5,717 nucleotides of DNA, taken from a virus (taxonomy: Duplodnaviria; Heunggongvirae; Uroviricota; Caudoviricetes). The notes beneath the pieces were generated by a model, which searched no databases, was not told where the DNA came from, and worked only from the letters and a program-made list of their open reading frames with translations. Location of the stretch: the IMG/VR virus record IMGVR_UViG_2671180577_000023; one strand, given 5' to 3'. The stretch's first letter is position 1. The number at the start of each line of letters is the position of its first letter. Shown here piece after piece: positions 1 through 5,717 of this stretch. Position numbers and translations under genes: made by a program.

Positions 1-97
1 TTGTCGCCCATTGTGAGTCATATTCGCCCTGACTTTCCAGAACCATACGGACTGCCCGTTGACGGACTTCAGGGGAAAAACGAGTATTTTTAGTCAT
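1..97 (-). CDS. IS3-family transposase OrfA, N-terminal 32 codons only (continues beyond window start)
   Basis: ATG at 97-95 with AGGA Shine-Dalgarno about 6 nt upstream; translation [32 protein letters not shown] matches the helix-turn-helix N-terminus typical of IS3-family OrfA. Below the ORF-track length threshold because it is partial. Confidence 0.8.
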
Positions 98-151
98 CCT
101 GTTTACCTCTTTCTCAGGAAGTTTAGTCTCCAGGATTCCCGGGGCGGTTCA
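1..151 (-). mobile_element. Left-hand partial IS3-family insertion sequence (IS629/IS1203-like): terminal inverted repeat tip at 151, element body continues left of the window
   Basis: Minus strand from 151 reads TGAACCGCCCCGGGAATCCTGGAGACTAAACTTCC, then AGGA RBS and an ATG at 97-95 opening an ORF that translates [32 protein letters not shown], a recalled IS3-family OrfA N-terminus. The same 14-nt tip TGAACCGCCCCGGG recurs at 5613 on the plus strand. Confidence 0.8.
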
Positions 152-266
152 GTGGGAGCGAGTCTGCGCCGCGCTGCGGGAGCTGAACAAGCACCGGGAT
201 ATTGTTCGACAGATTGTCGATTCATCCGGTCGTATTGTGTCGGAAAAGTGATTGCCGGAGGCGCTT

Positions 267-662
267 ATGGCGAAACCTTTTACACACGAACAGCGGGAAG
301 AACTGAAGGCACGAATTATCGGATTGGTACGCAAAAATGAACGCATGACGATATCGCAACTGGAGAGAGCGACGGGAGCAGGCTGGCATTCAGTCAGACG
401 TTGCCTTGTGGATGTACTGGCTTGTGGCGATTTATACATGTCCGGTAAATACGGTGTTTTTGCATCAGAACAGGTGTATCGCGTATGGCGTAAGACACCG
501 GAGAAAACAACTGACCAGACATTGATTCGAAAGTTACCAGACGGAGAAATTCGCCGCTACGATAGACGCCTGAACATAATCTGTCGCGAGTGCCGGAATA
601 GTGAAGTTATGCAGCGCGTGCTGGCTTTCTATCAGGGGAATTTTCAGGAGGCGGTACTGTGA
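267..662 (+). CDS. Hypothetical prophage protein, possible winged-helix DNA-binding protein (131 aa)
   Basis: ORF-track frame 252..662; the ATG at 267 is preferred because GGAGG sits 5 nt upstream. Stop TGA overlaps the GTG at 659 of the next ORF. Segment MTISQLERATGAGWHSVRRCL looks HTH-like. No family recognised. Confidence 0.6.
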   Translation: MAKPFTHEQREELKARIIGLVRKNERMTISQLERATGAGWHSVRRCLVDVLACGDLYMSGKYGVFASEQVYRVWRKTPEKTTDQTLIRKLPDGEIRRYDRRLNIICRECRNSEVMQRVLAFYQGNFQEAVL

Positions 663-718
663 GTAAATTAGCTATCAGGCTTCAATTGTCGCTGGCATTC
701 GCATCAAAGGAGAATGAG

Positions 719-1303
719 ATGACCACTTTTACAAAAGAGCAGTTAATCAGTCATGTTAGTGAAAATGTAAAGGCGATGAAATTTGCAGTAAAACAGACAG
801 CATTCAAAAATTCTCTCGAGGCAATTGAGTTGGATTTAGCACTGGCCCTTGTTGCTCAGGCTTCGCTGGAAGCAGAGCCCGTGCTTTATATGAATCGATT
901 TACCGGAAAGACATTCTCACTGGAAGAGCAACCCGGTGCTGATAAGGAACCGGAAATATACGTGCCGCTATATGCTGCCCCGCCAGACAGCGCCGCCATG
1001 CTTCAGGCTGGAAACTTTCGGGAAAAGAAGGGTTCGTCAACCAATAATTTTCGGGAAATCTCGGAAACGTCAACCAACCATCCGGTAACTCTGGATGGTT
1101 GGATAAGCTGTAGTGAGCGAATGCCGGATGACGGTCAGCACGTAATTATTTTATGTGATGGCGCATTCGTTCTTTATGCGCAATATCGAGACGGTGAGTT
1201 TTTTGATGTAGTCCGTGATGGTGATGAATTTTTCGAAACACAGAGCCGCAATGTAACCGACTGGATGCCGCTACCAGAACCGCCGCAGGAGGTGCGCCAA
1301 TGA
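719..1303 (+). CDS. Phage protein with C-terminal DUF551-like domain (194 aa from ATG 719; alternative GTG start at 659 gives 214 aa)
   Basis: ORF-track 659..1303. ATG at 719 is preceded by AAGGAG with 6-nt spacing. C-terminus WISCSERMPDDGQHVIILCDG...VTDWMPLPEPP follows the recalled DUF551 pattern common in lambdoid prophages. Confidence 0.7.
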   Translation: MTTFTKEQLISHVSENVKAMKFAVKQTAFKNSLEAIELDLALALVAQASLEAEPVLYMNRFTGKTFSLEEQPGADKEPEIYVPLYAAPPDSAAMLQAGNFREKKGSSTNNFREISETSTNHPVTLDGWISCSERMPDDGQHVIILCDGAFVLYAQYRDGEFFDVVRDGDEFFETQSRNVTDWMPLPEPPQEVRQ

Positions 1304-1383
1304 ACTGGCCTGAAGCATTTGCAATTACAGGCGTTGCTATGGCTATCACCTTTTTAGTATATGTTATTTGTCGGTGGGGGTAA
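1300..1383 (+). CDS. Small hydrophobic peptide, 27 aa (MNWPEAFAITGVAMAITFLVYVICRWG), predicted single transmembrane helix
   Basis: ATG at 1300 overlaps the TGA stop of the DUF551 gene (ATGA); AGGAGG lies 7 nt upstream. Not in the ORF track because it is under the size cutoff. Confidence 0.4.
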   Translation: MNWPEAFAITGVAMAITFLVYVICRWG

Positions 1384-1418
1384 AAACGTTCGCCGGGATT
1401 AACACCAAAGGAGGGAAT

Positions 1419-1523
1419 ATGTCGGATGATATATCACTGGCAATGGAAGGTGCGCTGGCTGTTATTGCTGTTGTGGGCGTTTACTGCCTGGTTGTGTTTT
1501 TGATGGATCGACTAGGGAACTGA
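1419..1523 (+). CDS. Small hydrophobic peptide, 34 aa (MSDDISLAMEGALAVIAVVGVYCLVVFLMDRLGN), predicted single transmembrane helix
   Basis: ATG at 1419 preceded by AAGGAGGG (1408-1415). Hydrophobic core flanked by charged residues. Not in the ORF track because it is under the size cutoff. Confidence 0.45.
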   Translation: MSDDISLAMEGALAVIAVVGVYCLVVFLMDRLGN

Positions 1524-1565
1524 ATTCATTACGATATGGGAATTCCCATATCGGGTAAAAACGGT

Positions 1566-1593
1566 TTGCGGTAAAGCGAGAGTTAAGTAGAAT
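1566..1593 (+). promoter_or_regulatory. Putative sigma70 promoter for the hok-like toxin mRNA (TTGCGG, 16 nt, TAGAAT)
   Basis: Hexamers read directly; position is consistent with a ~400-nt hok-type mRNA ending at the terminator near 2014. Confidence 0.3.
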
Positions 1594-1768
1594 TGCTGCG
1601 GGTGCTTGAGGCTGTCTGCCTCGGGCATGCCACCGTAAGGCAGACAGAGAAAAGCCCCAGTTAACATTACGCGTCCTGCAAGACGCCTAACATTAATCTG
1701 AGGCCAATTTCATGCTAGACACATGTAGGTTAGCCTCTTACGCGCCGAAAGGCAAGGAGAAGCAGGCT

Positions 1769-1924
1769 ATGAAGCAGCAAAAGGCGATGTTAGTCGCCCT
1801 GATCGTCATCTGTATTACCGTCGTAGTGACGGCACTGGTAACGAGGAAAGACCTCTGCGAGGTACGAATCCGAACCGGTCAGACGGAGGTTGCTGTCTTC
1901 ACAGCTTACGAACCTGAGGAGTAA
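1769..1924 (+). CDS. Hok/Gef-family type I toxin (51 aa, small membrane-active peptide)
   Basis: MKQQKAMLVALIVICITVVVTALVTRKDLCEVRIRTGQTEVAVFTAYEPEE has the Hok signature: N-terminal transmembrane helix then TRK.LCE.R...G..EVAAF.AYE. AAGGAG sits 9 nt upstream of the ATG. The ORF track extends the same frame to an ATG at 1712 (mok-like leader frame). Confidence 0.85.
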   Translation: MKQQKAMLVALIVICITVVVTALVTRKDLCEVRIRTGQTEVAVFTAYEPEE

Positions 1925-1992
1925 GAGACCAGGCGAGGGAGAAATCCCTCGCCACCTCTGATGTGTCAGGCATCCTCAACGCACCCGCACTT

Positions 1993-2014
1993 AACCCGCT
2001 TCGGCGGGTTTTTT
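1993..2014 (+). terminator. Rho-independent terminator ending the hok-like mRNA
   Basis: CCCGC-TTCG-GCGGG hairpin followed by TTTTTT. It is preceded at 1932-1953 by a 9-bp stem with GAAA loop (GGCGAGGGA gaaa TCCCTCGCC). Confidence 0.7.
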
Positions 2015-2133
2015 CACTTACTGTGGTTGTGAATACGATTGGTATTAGGCTATGCTAACAACATTAGCCTGACTAATTTTGTATTGACTTGATTTTTGTT
2101 AAAGAACAGGACGGAGAAGTAAGGGTACACCCA

Positions 2134-2313
2134 ATGAGCTACGCACTAAAAAAACACCCGCGATTGACTATTCCCCCTCGCGATAAAAGCGTTGTGGCAG
2201 CTCCGCGCCCGGCTATCGATGAAAATTGCACTCATCGTGAGCAGGTGAAAAATGCTTTCGATTTCGGTTTTTCTCGTTACGAGAAGGCAATGGAAGAACT
2301 TTCAAAAGTGTAA
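2134..2313 (+). CDS. Small protein (60 aa) directly upstream of the Doc-family gene; candidate antitoxin, not Phd-like
   Basis: ATG at 2134 with AAGGG 8 nt upstream; stop at 2311-2313 lies 18 nt before the Doc-like start. ORF-track frame 2089..2313 begins at a TTG. Sequence MSYALKKHPRLTIPPRDKSVVAAPRPAIDENCTHREQVKNAFDFGFSRYEKAMEELSKV shows no resemblance to Phd/YefM. Confidence 0.5.
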   Translation: MSYALKKHPRLTIPPRDKSVVAAPRPAIDENCTHREQVKNAFDFGFSRYEKAMEELSKV

Positions 2314-2331
2314 TGATGGGTATTGTGCTCT

Positions 2332-2817
2332 ATGGCTGAGATTGTTGAAGGAGTGCACTACCTTTCGTTTGATGATCTTACCGAAATTAATCGCCTTTTA
2401 ATTGAGCTTCAAACACCAGATGAACCTGTTAGTGTGCTGAGTGTTGATAATTTAAGTTCTTCTCAGTCTCGTCCCAGCATGGTTCGATGGTATGAACAGA
2501 CTAATGACATGTTTGTACTGGCATCAGTATTGATTGAAAGTCTGATTCAGAATCATCCATTTGCTAATGCAAACAAACGAACAGCTATGATGGCTGGTTA
2601 TGTCTTCTTGTTGTTGAATGGCTATGAGTTAACAGCACCAGGCGATGAAATCGTGGAAATGGCAGAGGGACTGGCCTGCAAAACCTATACTCGAGAAGAT
2701 CTCGAGAACTGGTTGTGTTATTGGTCTCGTGCGTATGACAGCCGGGAATTATGTAAAACAGGCGCAACTATTGTTTTGTATGAAACTATCAAGCTTAAAA
2801 TAGAACAGCAAAACTAA
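2332..2817 (+). CDS. Doc (death-on-curing) / Fic-fold family toxin, 161 aa
   Basis: Contains HPFANANKRTA, which fits the Doc motif H-x-F-x-(D/N)-(A/G)-N-K-R exactly. ORF-track frame 2323..2817 starts at TTG; the first ATG is at 2332. Confidence 0.8.
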   Translation: MAEIVEGVHYLSFDDLTEINRLLIELQTPDEPVSVLSVDNLSSSQSRPSMVRWYEQTNDMFVLASVLIESLIQNHPFANANKRTAMMAGYVFLLLNGYELTAPGDEIVEMAEGLACKTYTREDLENWLCYWSRAYDSRELCKTGATIVLYETIKLKIEQQN

Positions 2818-2833
2818 AGGTGCTTCTAATGAA

Positions 2834-2858
2834 AACCCGCTTCGGCGGGTTTTGTTGT
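2834..2858. terminator. Bidirectional intrinsic terminator between the convergent Doc-like and HigA-like genes
   Basis: CCCGC-TTCG-GCGGG hairpin (2836-2849) with TTTTGTTGT on the plus side and a T-run on the minus side. The hairpin and flanks (AACCCGCTTCGGCGGGTTTT) are identical to the hok terminator at 1993-2012. Confidence 0.6.
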
Positions 2859-2867
2859 ATTGGAGTA

Positions 2868-3185
2868 TCATGATATTACCTGGATCCCGTTTTTCTCTAC
2901 GACTGAAAGAAGGCGAAGAGCGGCACCTCCCGGCCGTTTTACACCACGTTCCCAGTCTGATATCAGGTTTTTACTGACGTTGAGGTATCTGGCAAAAACA
3001 GGTTGAGACAGATGCTCTCGTTCGCGCAGTGCACGGATCCTTTCCGGAGACATTACCGGCGCTGGCTGGAGACAAGTTTCATCGAATTCTCGCATAGTCT
3101 GTTTCGTTACTGCGCCGATATCATGAAGCGATTCCATCATTTCATGTACGGATGCAAGCGCATCACTGCGGTAATTTTTACTCAT
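2868..3185 (-). CDS. HigA-like antitoxin, XRE-type helix-turn-helix (COG2944-like), 105 aa
   Basis: ORF-track 2868..3185. C-terminal SPERIRALREREHLSQPVFARYLNVSKNLISDWERGVKRPGGAALRLL matches the recalled HTH antitoxin family partnered with RelE/ParE-like toxins. Its ATG (3185-3183) overlaps the stop of the upstream toxin frame (ATGAGTAA), the toxin-first order typical of HigBA. Confidence 0.8.
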   Translation of the reverse strand: MSKNYRSDALASVHEMMESLHDIGAVTKQTMREFDETCLQPAPVMSPERIRALREREHLSQPVFARYLNVSKNLISDWERGVKRPGGAALRLLSVVEKNGIQVIS

Positions 3186-3548
3186 TGGGTACCTCCGTAA
3201 ACTGACCCTGTAGAATCAGTTGTGCCAGTTGTTCATCTGTTAGATTGAGTACGTGAGGAGCCGCCTTCCGAAATGCACTTTCCGCAGTAGCGGTTATATT
3301 TTCACGTTCATTTTTTGCGTATGCATATACGAAAAAGGCCCTTGTGCCGACGCGATAGAAAATGATTGTGCGATAACCGCCAGATTTGCCGCCACCGACT
3401 CGTGGCAGACGTTGCTTGATAACGCCGTTACCCAGGTTTGCTGAGATAAGCCCGTTATCAGCCTGTTTAACAATTTCGCGCAGTGATTGGTCGGATATTT
3501 TGTTTTGCGTGCAAATCGCTCAAACCAGGCGTTTTTAAAAATGCGCAT
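3178..3548 (-). pseudogene. RelE/ParE-superfamily (HigB-like) toxin gene, disrupted by a frameshift after codon ~16
   Basis: From ATG 3548-3546 the frame reads MRIFKNAWFERFARK, the conserved N-terminus of this family, then runs into unrelated sequence (ORF-track 3294..3611). The rest of the toxin (KISDQSLREIVKQADNGLISANLGNGVIKQRLPRVGGGKSGGYRTIIFYRVGTRAFFVYAYAKNERENITATAESAFRKAAPHVLNLTDEQLAQLILQGQFTEVPNE) is intact in another frame with no start codon of its own. The break lies in the A-rich tract AAAACAAAATAT (about 3495-3506). Confidence 0.7.
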
Positions 3549-3570
3549 TTTTTGTTCCGTTATTAATGTA

Positions 3571-3585
3571 TAACACATAGTGTTA
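3571..3585. promoter_or_regulatory. Perfect inverted repeat TAACAC-ata-GTGTTA upstream of the higB-like start; candidate operator for the HigA-like repressor
   Basis: 6-bp arms with 3-bp spacer read directly; sits about 25 bp upstream of the toxin ATG in its promoter region. Confidence 0.35.
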
Positions 3586-3615
3586 CATTGCGTAGGGATC
3601 TGCAATGCCATCAGT

Positions 3616-3645
3616 TTGACAACGTCGCGTGTTCGGGGCTATATT
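3616..3645 (+). promoter_or_regulatory. Near-consensus sigma70 promoter (TTGACA, 18 nt, TATATT) driving the leader, c4-like RNA and ORF6N operon
   Basis: Hexamers read directly; the same architecture (TTGACG, 18 nt, TATATT) recurs at 5201-5230 upstream of the paralogous module. Confidence 0.6.
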
Positions 3646-3705
3646 CCTCACGCGCCAGCAAAACCTGGCGTCGGGATTAGCACCCCGGATATCGAAACGG
3701 TGCAT

Positions 3706-3726
3706 AACCGCGCTGGCGGTTTTTTT
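3706..3726 (+). terminator. Terminator-like hairpin plus T7 run in the leader, between target sites and the c4-like RNA (possible attenuator)
   Basis: AACCGC-GCTG-GCGGTT followed by TTTTTTT. The upstream CGCCAG (3653-3658) can pair with either CTGGCG copy (3665-3670 or 3713-3718), giving alternative folds. Confidence 0.45.
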
Positions 3727-3758
3727 ATGCGCTAAGCACAGTCACATTCGCGATTTAT

Positions 3759-3835
3759 GGCGGGCTGTGTGGGGGAGCCGAAAGGCTCGCCGGATGTTTC
3801 GACCGGTAGTGCTAACCCCGCACAGTTCGCCACCA
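3759..3835 (+). ncRNA. Candidate c4-like antisense regulatory RNA (~77 nt) upstream of the ORF6N gene
   Basis: A 16-bp closing helix (3759-3774 with 3816-3831) encloses a GNRA hairpin (GAGCC-GAAA-GGCTC) and two loops. Loop GTTTCGA (3796-3802) is complementary to TCGAAAC at 3692-3698 and 3873-3879; loop GTGCTAA (3809-3815) is complementary to TTAGCAC at 3677-3683 and 3842-3848. A 3-prime ACCA tail follows. The second target pair lies just upstream of the ORF6N RBS. Confidence 0.5.
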
Positions 3836-3890
3836 CGATGATTAGCACCTGACGGTGGCGAGGTAAAAATTATCGAAACGCGAGGTCATT

Positions 3891-4556
3891 ATGGCTGTTC
3901 AAATTTCTGTCGAAAACCTTTCCCCTGTTACCTATAACCAGATCCCCGTAATTACTACTGAACTGTTGGCTCACCTTTACGGAACAAAAATCAAAAACAT
4001 TTCTGATAACTTTCTGAACAACACGACGCGATTCATGCCCGGAAAGCATTACTTTAAAATTGAAAAAAACGAATTACGCGAGTTTAAGAACAGACCCGAA
4101 ACAATCGGGTTAGTTGGTAAAAATGCCCGCTCCCTCATCCTCTGGACAGAACGCGGCGCAGCCCGTCACGCAAAAATGCTCGAAACCGATCGGGCGTGGG
4201 AGGTATTCGAAAAACTGGAAGACTGCTATTTCAGCCAGGGAAAAACAGCACCAACCGAACAGCAGCCGCAGATTCAGCCACAATTCACAGCCGAAGAAAT
4301 CATCCTCCTTTGCTACATGCAGCTCTGGATGGAAAAAGCCCAGGACATCAGCAAACACCTGTATCCCATTATGAAAGAGCTGAACTCCTCATACACGAAC
4401 AAGCTGTATGACATTGCGTTTGAGACCATCTACATGGTGACGAAGAACAGAGACGCGCTACTGAGGGAGGTAACACGTCTCGACATGTCAAGTTCCGTTA
4501 TCCAGCGGGCCATGCCAATGCTGAAAAGCCTGCGGGCAAGACAATTTGAATTCTGA
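3891..4556 (+). CDS. Antirepressor-like protein with N-terminal ORF6N/KilA-N-type domain, 221 aa
   Basis: ORF-track 3891..4556; GAGG lies 5 nt upstream of the ATG. N-terminus MAVQISVENLSPVTYNQIPVITTELLAHLYGT...FMPGKHYFKIEKNELREF matches the recalled ORF6N pattern of phage antirepressors. Confidence 0.75.
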   Translation: MAVQISVENLSPVTYNQIPVITTELLAHLYGTKIKNISDNFLNNTTRFMPGKHYFKIEKNELREFKNRPETIGLVGKNARSLILWTERGAARHAKMLETDRAWEVFEKLEDCYFSQGKTAPTEQQPQIQPQFTAEEIILLCYMQLWMEKAQDISKHLYPIMKELNSSYTNKLYDIAFETIYMVTKNRDALLREVTRLDMSSSVIQRAMPMLKSLRARQFEF

Positions 4557-4560
4557 AACT

Positions 4561-4583
4561 AAAGGAGCTTCGGCTCCTTTTTT
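4561..4583 (+). terminator. Rho-independent terminator after the ORF6N gene
   Basis: GGAGC-TTCG-GCTCC hairpin followed by TTTTTT. Coordinates are approximate to within a base. Confidence 0.7.
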
Positions 4584-4610
4584 GTTGGGAAAATCCAGTG
4601 AGAGGGAATA

Positions 4611-5021
4611 ATGAACCAGACTATCTTCCTCCGAAGTAAGCAGCAGCAACAATTCGCCATTAACGCCATCCTTGCAACAACTCTCGATAAAGACAAACCC
4701 GTTACGATCCGCATCACCGATTACAAGCGGAATCTCGATCAAAATGCCAAATTTCACGCGATGGTCGCTGATATCTCCCGACAGGTTCAGTGGTGCGGCA
4801 GATGGCTAAAACCAGAACAGTGGAAAGTTTTGTTAATCAGCGGTCATGCCGTGGCGACAAAACAGGAAGCTGATGTTTTGCCTGGTCTTGAAGGTGAATA
4901 CGTCAATATCCGCGAAAGCAGTGCGCAGATGAGCGTGAAGCGTATGGCAAGCCTGATTGAGTACACAACTTCCTGGGCTGTGGAGCAGGGTGTCAGATTT
5001 ACCGACAGGAGGTATGAATGA
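4611..5021 (+). CDS. ninB: NinB-family protein (lambda NinB-like single-strand DNA-binding recombination protein), 136 aa
   Basis: ORF-track 4611..5021. Segment [33 protein letters not shown] aligns with the recalled lambda NinB core RSLDQNRKLWACLGDVSRQVEWHGRWLDAESWK. GAGGG RBS upstream. Confidence 0.8.
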
Positions 5022-5200
5022 GACGACAGCGACGAAGCATTACCGATATAGTCTGTGAAAACTGCAATTACCTTCCAACGAAACGTTCCAGAAATAAACC
5101 CAGGCCAATCCCAAAAGAATCTGACGTTAAAGCCTTCAATTACACGGCTCACCTGTGGGATATCCGGTGGCTAAGACATCGTGCGAGGAAAACAAGGTGA
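5018..5200 (+). CDS. ninE: NinE-family protein, 60 aa
   Basis: ORF-track 5018..5200. Start overlaps the ninB stop (ATGA). [60 protein letters not shown] matches the recalled lambda NinE sequence closely. Confidence 0.75.
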
Positions 5201-5230
5201 TTGACGTGATGATTTATTCGGGGCTATATT
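5201..5230 (+). promoter_or_regulatory. Sigma70 promoter (TTGACG, 18 nt, TATATT) of the second leader / c4-like / ORF6N module
   Basis: Same spacing and -10 as the promoter at 3616-3645. The downstream 40 nt (TTCCTCACGCGCCAGCAAAAYCTGGCGTCGGGATT) are nearly identical between modules. Confidence 0.55.
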
Positions 5231-5291
5231 CCTCACGCGCCAGCAAAATCTGGCGTCGGGATTGGCGTCCTGGATAGAGACCGCGACAGAT

Positions 5292-5314
5292 ACACGCCGC
5301 GAGCGTGTTTTTTA
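5292..5314 (+). terminator. Terminator-like hairpin plus T-run in the second leader (counterpart of 3706-3726)
   Basis: ACACGC-CGCGA-GCGTGT followed by TTTTTT. Sequence differs from module A but structure and position are conserved. Confidence 0.5.
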
Positions 5315-5344
5315 TTGTCGTATGCACGCGCACATCTGAATTAT

Positions 5345-5420
5345 GGTGGGCTGTGTGGGGGCGGAGAGATCCGCGCCGGTCGGTTTCCCGGTTACGCCAA
5401 CCCTGCACAGTTCACCACCA
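5345..5420 (+). ncRNA. Second candidate c4-like antisense RNA (~76 nt), diverged paralogue of 3759-3835
   Basis: Same architecture: 16-bp closing helix (5345-5360 with 5401-5416), GNRA hairpin GCGGA-GAGA-TCCGC, two recognition loops, ACCA tail. Loop ACGCCAA (5394-5400) is complementary to TTGGCGT at 5262-5268 and 5426-5432; loop GGTTTC is complementary to GAAACC near the RBS (5453-5458). Confidence 0.5.
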
Positions 5421-5474
5421 GACGATTGGCGTCGTCGGTGGTGAGTTATTAAGAAACCACTCGAGGGCGTCATT

Positions 5475-5615
5475 ATGACAACTCAAATCTCTGTTGAAAC
5501 ACTCTCCACGATTACTTACAAGCAGATCCCCGTTATCACTACCGAACTTTTGGCGCACCTTTACGGCACAGAAGCTATTCGTATTCGCCAGAATCACCAC
5601 GAAAACAAAGGTTGA
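5475..5615 (+). pseudogene. Second ORF6N antirepressor-like gene, truncated after codon 46 by the IS insertion
   Basis: GAGGG RBS then ATG at 5475; MTTQISVETLSTITYKQIPVITTELLAHLYGTEAIRIRQNHHENKG parallels the first 46 residues of the 3891..4556 protein. The frame stops at TGA 5613-5615, which is the first three bases of the IS terminal repeat. Confidence 0.75.
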
Positions 5616-5717
5616 ACCGCCCCGGGTTTCCTGGAGAGTGTTTTATCTGTGAACTCAGGCTGCCAGATCATCGTTTCCGATGGAAGCATAATAAGCTTTT
5701 TCTGCTTCTGCCGGAGG
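5613..5717 (-). mobile_element. Right-hand partial IS3-family insertion sequence (IS629/IS1203-like): terminal repeat at 5613, body continues past the window end
   Basis: Plus strand from 5613 reads TGAACCGCCCCGGGTTTCCTGGAGAGTG, sharing its first 14 nt with the repeat at 151 and diverging after, as expected for the opposite end of the same IS. Same orientation as the left copy. Confidence 0.8.
5655..5717 (-). CDS. IS3-family transposase OrfB, C-terminal 20 codons only (continues beyond window end)
   Basis: Minus-strand frame reads PPAEAEKAYYASIGNDDLAA then TGA (plus 5655-5657), ending about 40 nt inside the terminal repeat, the usual layout for an IS3-family OrfB. Confidence 0.55.
   Translation of the reverse strand, partial: PPAEAEKAYYASIGNDDLAA

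Follow-up and report, generated by a model that had tools for sequence, protein, structure and literature searches.

The window analysed here, a stretch of 5717 bp, is the entire short-read draft contig CYAX01000107.1 (L003) of the E. coli assembly GCA_001285865.1. Both of its ends stop within IS629/IS1203-type repeats, with the IRL end of one copy at 1-151 and the IRR end of another at 5613-5717. Two paralogous modules were found in this prophage DNA, each consisting of a promoter-like site, an isrK-type RNA, a C4-type RNA and an antirepressor gene of the ORF6N/P22_AR_C family. The first module is intact, and the antirepressor gene of the second is interrupted by the right-hand IS. The main features are as follows.

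1..151, minus strand: IRL-proximal 151 nt of an IS629-type copy with the orfA start, cutting a DUF1627 gene
3616..4556, plus strand: intact paralogous module 1, with a promoter-like site, isrK, C4 and a 221-aa ORF6N/P22_AR_C gene at 3891-4556
5201..5230, plus strand: sigma-70 promoter-like site of module 2, TTGACG-18 nt-TATATT, with 10 of 12 consensus matches, placed to start near the isrK 5' end
5224..5276, plus strand: c4-a1b1 motif, the upstream C4 decoy sites (RF03163, 50.5 bits against a gathering threshold of 46.7)
5237..5313, plus strand: isrK-type small RNA (RF01394, 75.5 bits against 50, matching the full-length model)
5339..5422, plus strand: C4-type antisense RNA of module 2 (RF01695, 66.7 bits against 45)
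5426..5458, plus strand: C4 target boxes in the ant leader, UUGGCGU at 5426-5432 and GAAACC at 5453-5458, exact complements with predicted pairing
5475..5612, plus strand: 5' stub, 46 codons, of an ORF6N/P22_AR_C antirepressor gene, 100% identical to codons 1-46 of WP_000211434.1 of strain FORC_069
5610..5612, no strand assigned: GGT target triplet, single in the intact allele and repeated beyond the IS at positions 81-83 of contig L006
5613..5615, plus strand: stop codon TGA of the stub, from the first three IS bases
5613..5637, on the right-hand IS: its terminal repeat
5613..5717, minus strand: IRR-proximal 105 nt of an IS629/IS1203-type IS3-family element, with the orfB 3' end, 100% identical to annotated IS1203; the contig ends inside it

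Several other genes were observed in the window. A hok/sok type I toxin-antitoxin locus, comprising an Rfam sok match at 1600-1774 (116.9 bits) and a HokD-like ORF at 1769-1924, lies between a DUF551 gene and a Doc/Fic toxin gene (2323-2817). The hok locus and the Doc/Fic gene are each followed by an identical 20-nt terminator-like hairpin, AACCCGCTTCGGCGGGTTTT, at 1993-2012 and 2834-2853, respectively, and the DUF551 gene contains an imperfect 33-nt tandem duplication with 75% identity (1013-1077). A RelE/ParE-family toxin gene on the minus strand (3178-3611) adjoins an HTH antitoxin gene (2868-3185) and is split over two frames, with the match to the RelE N-terminus in ORF 3294-3611 and the rest in the frame ending at 3178. 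The same split is present in E. coli FORC_069, where PGAP annotates a 112-aa product, and the toxin is probably frameshifted.

Comparison with the prophage of FORC_069 located the break in the second antirepressor gene to the base. Window positions 151-5612 were 99.9% identical to this prophage in a gapless alignment with 5 mismatches in 5462 nt, which ended exactly at 5612. None of the mismatches fell within 5200-5612, and at least nine complete genomes among the matches listed were 100% identical over 5200-5612 and matched nothing beyond. The plus-strand ORF 5475..5615 of the window encodes only 46 aa, MTTQISVETLSTITYKQIPVITTELLAHLYGTEAIRIRQNHHENKG, and bases 5613-5626 read TGAACCGCCCCGGG. 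The codons at the break are AAC AAA GGT CGT TTC ATT in FORC_069 and AAC AAA GGT TGA ACC GCC in the window; since GGT is followed by CGT in the intact allele and by TGA in the window, the stop codon of the stub is wholly IS-derived. The stub ends directly after Gly46 because the IS begins with 5'-TGA, and IS629 termini of this kind give an instant stop whenever they land in the right frame. An earlier note on this DNA had described a second ORF6N gene of 46 codons that stops at 5613-5615 on the first three bases of the IS, and both the ORF listing and the IS alignment agree with that description. Its further reading as an insertional knockout was borne out by the FORC_069 allele, which is colinear until 5612 and there runs on to 227 codons (WP_000211434.1, 'phage antirepressor Ant'), with loss of activity as the expected consequence.

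Pfam searches further showed that the gene was cut in the middle of a domain, as had also been claimed. The intact orthologue contains an ORF6N domain at residues 12-98 (70.9 bits) and a P22_AR_C domain at residues 127-199 (85.1 bits). The stub matched positions 3-36 of the 86 positions of the ORF6N profile (PF10543; 28.8 bits against a cut-off of 27.8), and no match to P22_AR_C (PF10548) was found in its 46 aa. The break therefore falls between profile positions 36 and 37, with 50 of the 86 positions lost from the stub, and the downstream remnant carries ORF6N positions 37-86 together with the full P22_AR_C domain. Both the intact paralogue at 3891-4556 and the intact orthologue span ORF6N positions 3-86; these two proteins are 48% identical overall, and 66% identical over the 44 aligned residues of the stub. 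The mid-domain cut is far beyond chance, and the stub is a pseudogene of an ORF6N/P22_AR_C family member without complete domains. Because only ORF6N positions 3-36 are kept and P22_AR_C is lost, the domain content indicates that the protein is almost certainly inactive. The family name and the precedents of P22, Gifsy and P1 suggest that Ant would bind a phage repressor and inactivate it.

The sequence beyond 5612 was assigned to an IS3-family element of the IS629/IS1203 type. Window 5613-5717 matched a PGAP-annotated 1310-bp 'IS3-like element IS1203' of E. coli O157:H7 MB41-1 at 105 of 105 positions (E=3e-52), and a full-length IS copy of strain 4/2-1 at 104 of 105 (99%); the other end of the latter copy was identical to window 1-151 over all 151 nt. 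Two reference IS copies that were compared are 96.0% identical to each other, and IS629 sub-types have been described as 4-5% apart (Rump et al., PMC3271280, citing Ooka et al. 2009). The visible end is the IRR, that is, the transposase-distal end, and the IS lies on the minus strand. The C-terminus of the minus-strand orfB can be read within 5613-5717 as ...EAEKAYYASIGNDDLAA or, in a longer read-out, as ...AEKAYYASIGNDDLAA. The terminal repeat at 5613-5637 and the sequence at 127-151 form 25-nt arms that are 92% complementary and face each other across the contig (inverted repeat I1). Termini as in the window (TGAACCGCCCCGGG..., 5'-TG...CA-3') bound the annotated 1310-bp reference copies, in which the transposase, with orfA and orfB joined by a programmed -1 frameshift, was seen; the window shows 105 nt of the element at this insertion. 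Inverted repeats, near-identity to the references and a target duplication within 3-4 bp, the last through a sister assembly, all characterize the element as IS629/IS1203.

The IS copy at the left end of the window has the same orientation as the right-hand copy and interrupts the DUF1627 gene (window 152-265), which has 256 codons, at codon 224. The IRL end of this copy was 92.7% identical to O157 IS1203, whereas copies in other strains that carry the annotation 'IS3 family transposase' matched it at 100%. A search for the far side of this copy with a predicted DUF1627-IS fusion peptide returned two candidates, neither of which was fused to an IS. We considered whether the two same-orientation IS ends delimit a composite transposon with a 5.46-kb segment and rejected this, since both sides are colinear with the uninterrupted prophage and the right-hand copy has a target duplication of its own.

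The earlier note had stated that only one junction of the right-hand IS is visible. This is correct for the window, where the far junction is invisible because the short-read contig breaks in a multicopy IS repeat, but not as a property of the locus. A short-read contig that ends in IS sequence gives no basis for calling a locus boundary. To find the far junction, the 181 C-terminal residues that the stub lacks were used as a query against the protein collection. The search returned WP_053890286.1, a 208-aa partial protein that consists of a read-out of the IS IRL followed by G-RFIEEKHFF... to the natural stop, and whose IS-derived start shares the reading frame of window ORF 59-340. Its contig is CYDI01000063.1 (L006) of assembly GCA_001285245.1, here called the sister assembly. 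Positions 1-80 of L006 are identical to window 72-151, the IS IRL end, ending ...CCCGGGGCGGTTCA, and through window 72-151 they are also 100% identical to the IS copy of strain 4/2-1. Immediately after the IS, L006 reads GGT CGT TTC ATT GAG..., the in-frame remainder of ant, and then continues for 6 kb at 99.9% identity colinear with FORC_069, through genes for a KilAC antirepressor, YbcO, RusA, NinH and Q and through lysis genes. A second contig of the sister assembly, the 2042-bp L004, carries an identical 46-codon stub that runs into the IS.

The three junctions can be read as ...aaaggt|TGAACC in the window, ...GGTTCA|ggtcgtttc in L006 and aaaggt^cgtttc in the intact allele. For the window's own genome, a simple insertion would predict a far side that reads GGTTCA-GGT-CGTTTCATTGAGG followed by the ant remainder, with GGGGCGGTTCAGGTCGTTTCATTGAGG as the expected junction string and GCGATGCAGTGAAGGCGGCA as a site in the ant 3' part. 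The single GGT of the intact allele flanks the IS on either side, a 3-bp duplication and hence a simple transposition event, as demonstrated in the sister assembly rather than in that of the window itself. Both comparisons that the earlier note had proposed thus came out as it predicted: the far end of the IS in the sister assembly gave GGT and the in-frame rest of the ORF6N gene, and the related prophage of FORC_069, which lacks the IS at this site, showed a single GGT. The duplication of 3-4 bp that it expected is 3 bp long. The reference copies in strain 4/2-1 and in O157:H7 MB41-1 are likewise flanked by 3-bp duplications (CAG and AGT, respectively), and the copy in O103:H2 strain 129 by AAG or AAAG, that is, 3 or 4 bp. 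Target duplications of 3-4 bp have been reported for IS629, with 62% of its copies located in prophages (Rump et al. 2011, PMC3271280).

We regard a simple insertion of an IS629/IS1203-type element into codon 47 of the second Ant gene as highly likely. IS insertions can also be accompanied by larger losses, as in strain 111, where an ORF6N stub and IS1203 are followed by a 5'-truncated DUF6645/SASA gene and ant-3', ninG and Q are missing. An IS-associated deletion or rearrangement of this kind in the window's own genome, with the rest of ant and perhaps nin/Q genes lost, would be compatible with its unseen far junction and with the same-orientation IS629-type copy 5.46 kb away at 1-151. It appears clearly unlikely, however, given that the sister assembly combines the identical stub junction with a perfect GGT duplication and a colinear downstream prophage, and that the stub contig recurs (L003 in two samples and at least five further similar places, L004 likewise in two samples). 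This recurrence also bears on the suspicion of a chimeric join at a repeat, in which case the gene would really be intact. The window is a short draft contig with repeats at both ends, and metagenome scaffold L005 shows the intact allele, ...AAAGGTC, one base past the site. Against an assembly artefact, which we consider extremely improbable, the junction was recovered from several independent assemblies, under four NCBI protein accessions and on seven contigs; the reciprocal junction has a matching 3-bp duplication, which an assembler would not create; and IS-to-ant fusion ORFs are known from further assemblies (WP_251361318.1 and WP_261290075.1).

Whether the split gene might keep or gain a function, through the 46-aa peptide alone or through a fusion ORF, was considered as well. 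A 213-aa fusion ORF begins at a TTG within the IS end and extends into the remnant, comprising ORF6N positions 37-86 and the full P22_AR_C. It has been annotated by NCBI, and its P22_AR_C domain is complete (85 bits). Nevertheless, its start is a TTG codon, each of the two pieces is without half of the ORF6N domain, PGAP calls equivalent splits pseudogenes, and a scan of both strands of a full-length reference IS copy found no promoter-like site. Because the reference IS copy is without such a site, the fusion ORF is regarded as an annotation by-product, and activity of either piece seems very improbable.

The interrupted allele is known from about seven short-read contigs. Seven NCBI contigs encode the stub protein (accessions CTT79202.1, CTT79688.1, CTU05306.1 and CTW70122.1). 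Scaffold L005 (ENA, 514 nt) had also been listed with the 46-aa protein and was rejected as an eighth carrier; it stops one base beyond the insertion point, cut by the contig end, and its final ...AAAGGTC belongs to the intact allele. The junction occurred in 0 of 5,426 complete E. coli genomes, and exact-junction scans gave no match to the near junction in GTDB representative genomes and none to the far junction in JGI metagenomes. The insertion looks recent and lineage-restricted.

IS629 insertions into genes of prophages are well documented, and complete genomes proved to contain IS629/IS1203 copies that had entered orthologous ORF6N ant genes independently. In O103:H2 strain 129 (L012 2776-3066), the IS follows codon 97 and the gene is simply split into two annotated pseudogene halves, and in strain 111 (L011 2776-3120), it follows codon 115 and is accompanied by the deletion up to the DUF6645 gene. 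The insertion in O157:H7 MB41-1 (L002 4276-5031) is near the 3' end of the gene, where the annotated 251-aa CDS likewise ends in an IS-borne TGA. These three cases and the window share the gene family, the position after ninE, the isrK/C4 leader and the IS type, and differ in the insertion site, which is codon 47 in the window. The shared orientation of the IS in these ant genes was rejected as a sign of bias, since a query made of the stub and the IRR end on one strand recovers just that orientation. Compared with known IS629/IS1203 prophage insertions in EHEC and other E. coli, the insertion in the window has the same termini, duplication size and prophage location; it differs in that its codon-47 site in this ant allele is absent from the 5,426 complete genomes and in that here the ends alone of the element are visible, not its body. 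The three independent cases indicate that IS insertion into prophage ant genes, and the annotation of the products as pseudogenes, is routine.

Upstream of the insertion, the whole of module 2 is 100% identical to its uninterrupted relatives, which supports the earlier statement that the c4-like RNA and its promoter were left intact at the sequence level. The matches to C4, c4-a1b1 and isrK all exceed the Rfam gathering thresholds, and paired sites lie both upstream and downstream of C4. The isrK terminator is formed by a stem at 5292-5308 and a T-run, closing at 5313. Two single-stranded segments of the C4 RNA are predicted to recognize its targets. ACGCCAA (5394-5400) is complementary to UUGGCGU at 5426 and to the c4-a1b1 box of the same sequence at 5262-5268, and CGGUUUC (5381-5387) is complementary to GAAACC at 5453 and, with one G-U pair, to GAGACCG at 5277. 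These helices are short (6-7 nt) and were assigned from the positions of the complements alone, a G-U-tolerant contiguous scan being too noisy. An SD-like GAGGG (5462-5466) lies just 3' of the target boxes, followed by the ant ATG at 5475. A GTG-started frame of 57 codons (5305-5478) runs through the C4 region and overlaps the start of ant in an ATGA, an arrangement also described in Gifsy-1 for orf45. The ATG at 5343, the positional equivalent of the first AUG of orf45 in Gifsy-1, opens another frame, which stops at 5444.

Module 1 has the same layout. Its promoter-like site at 3616-3645 matches 11 of 12 consensus positions, and the Rfam trio is complete, with c4-a1b1 at 3639-3691, isrK at 3652-3726 and C4 at 3753-3837. 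The two modules (3616-3890 and 5201-5474) are about 75-92% identical, and both C4 recognition boxes differ between them, being UUAGCAC and UCGAAAC in module 1 versus UUGGCGU and GAGACCG/GAAACC in module 2. Since the boxes are different and no cross-complementarity between those of module 1 and module 2 was found, the two tandem modules look heterospecific. The arrangement resembles the heteroimmunity of P1 versus P7, but inside one prophage. The start of the module 1 ant gene reads ATGG, without an ATGA overlap. In the sister strain, the leader of the ant-1 module seems to have been hit by an IS as well: positions 1-102 of L004 are 100% identical to an IS600 end, and the join, seen on this single contig, corresponds to window position 3780 and falls within the first hairpin loop of C4-1.

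To place module 2 among known regulatory systems, we compared it with the immI region of P1/P7 and with the isrK region of Gifsy-1. In P1 immI, the c4 RNA blocks the ant leader (PMC8198154). Like the c4 - icd - ant1/2 arrangement of P1/P7, module 2 matches the C4 and a1/b1 models and has complements on both sides of C4, with the downstream ones located by the antirepressor RBS. Unlike P1, the host is a lambdoid prophage, the antirepressor is of the ORF6N/P22_AR_C type, two heterospecific modules stand in tandem, and the regulated protein has been destroyed. No clear icd-like coupled ORF is apparent either, the sole ATGA-overlapping frame being GTG-started. In Gifsy-1, the short IsrK with its a1/b1 region opens the leader and activates translation of anrP, whose product in turn switches on AntQ, a toxic protein (Hershko-Shalev et al. 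2016, PMC4825925). Module 2 resembles the isrK-orf45-anrP locus in the order of the promoter, IsrK and its leaky terminator, a structured region ('orf45' there, C4 here) and the antirepressor, and in both systems the antirepressor start is about 240 nt from the predicted transcription start. Unlike in Gifsy-1, however, the orf45 frame is not conserved, and module 2 can no longer yield its antirepressor, which would interrupt the cascade at the protein step.

Taken together, the analysis supports the interpretation of the earlier note. A 1.3-kb IS629/IS1203-type element has most likely transposed into codon 47 of the second ant gene, in the lambdoid nin region downstream of ninE, and duplicated the target triplet GGT. 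As the element starts with 5'-TGA, translation of the stub stops right after Gly46, and Ant-2 activity would be lost. Some 1.3 kb of IS sequence in antisense orientation would now separate ninE from the genes that follow it (the next antirepressor gene, the ninG-like gene, ninH and Q), and polarity on early-right transcription is possible. The intact ant-1 and the downstream KilAC-type antirepressor could provide redundancy for the lost gene. Judging from its intact sequence, the module 2 cassette probably still makes its RNAs, which would now control just the 46-codon stub. The proposal that the prophage makes an immunity RNA whose target gene is dead thus applies to the protein output, which is lost, but not to the RNA target sites, as the leader and the RBS are still present.

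The 258-nt cassette was found in 925 of the 5,426 genomes, at up to 4 places per genome, and the cassette is standard in Stx-converting and other lambdoid phages. Given this frequency, a role in trans is conceivable, but speculative: the orphan isrK/C4 RNAs might be retained for action on other lambdoid prophages or incoming phages of the same C4 specificity. Alternatively, IS hits on antirepressor modules, such as the one that module 1 also seems to have received in the sister assembly, might be selected for prophage 'grounding'. We consider both readings unlikely.

The knockout of the module 2 antirepressor gene by the IS is real but ordinary, and its only mildly interesting aspects are the isrK/C4 cassette, now orphaned, and the tandem arrangement of heterospecific modules. 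Its value is mostly for annotation: the 46-aa protein deposited as 'putative antirepressor protein Ant' corresponds to the 5' stub of a pseudogene that an IS has split, and the second half of this pseudogene appears on another contig under the name 'partial P22AR C-terminal domain protein'. For the lysogen, the insertion is a minor step of prophage decay, in which one of three tandem antirepressor genes was lost and its RNA control cassette was kept; this loss would matter only if the orphan RNAs cross-talk with other prophages.
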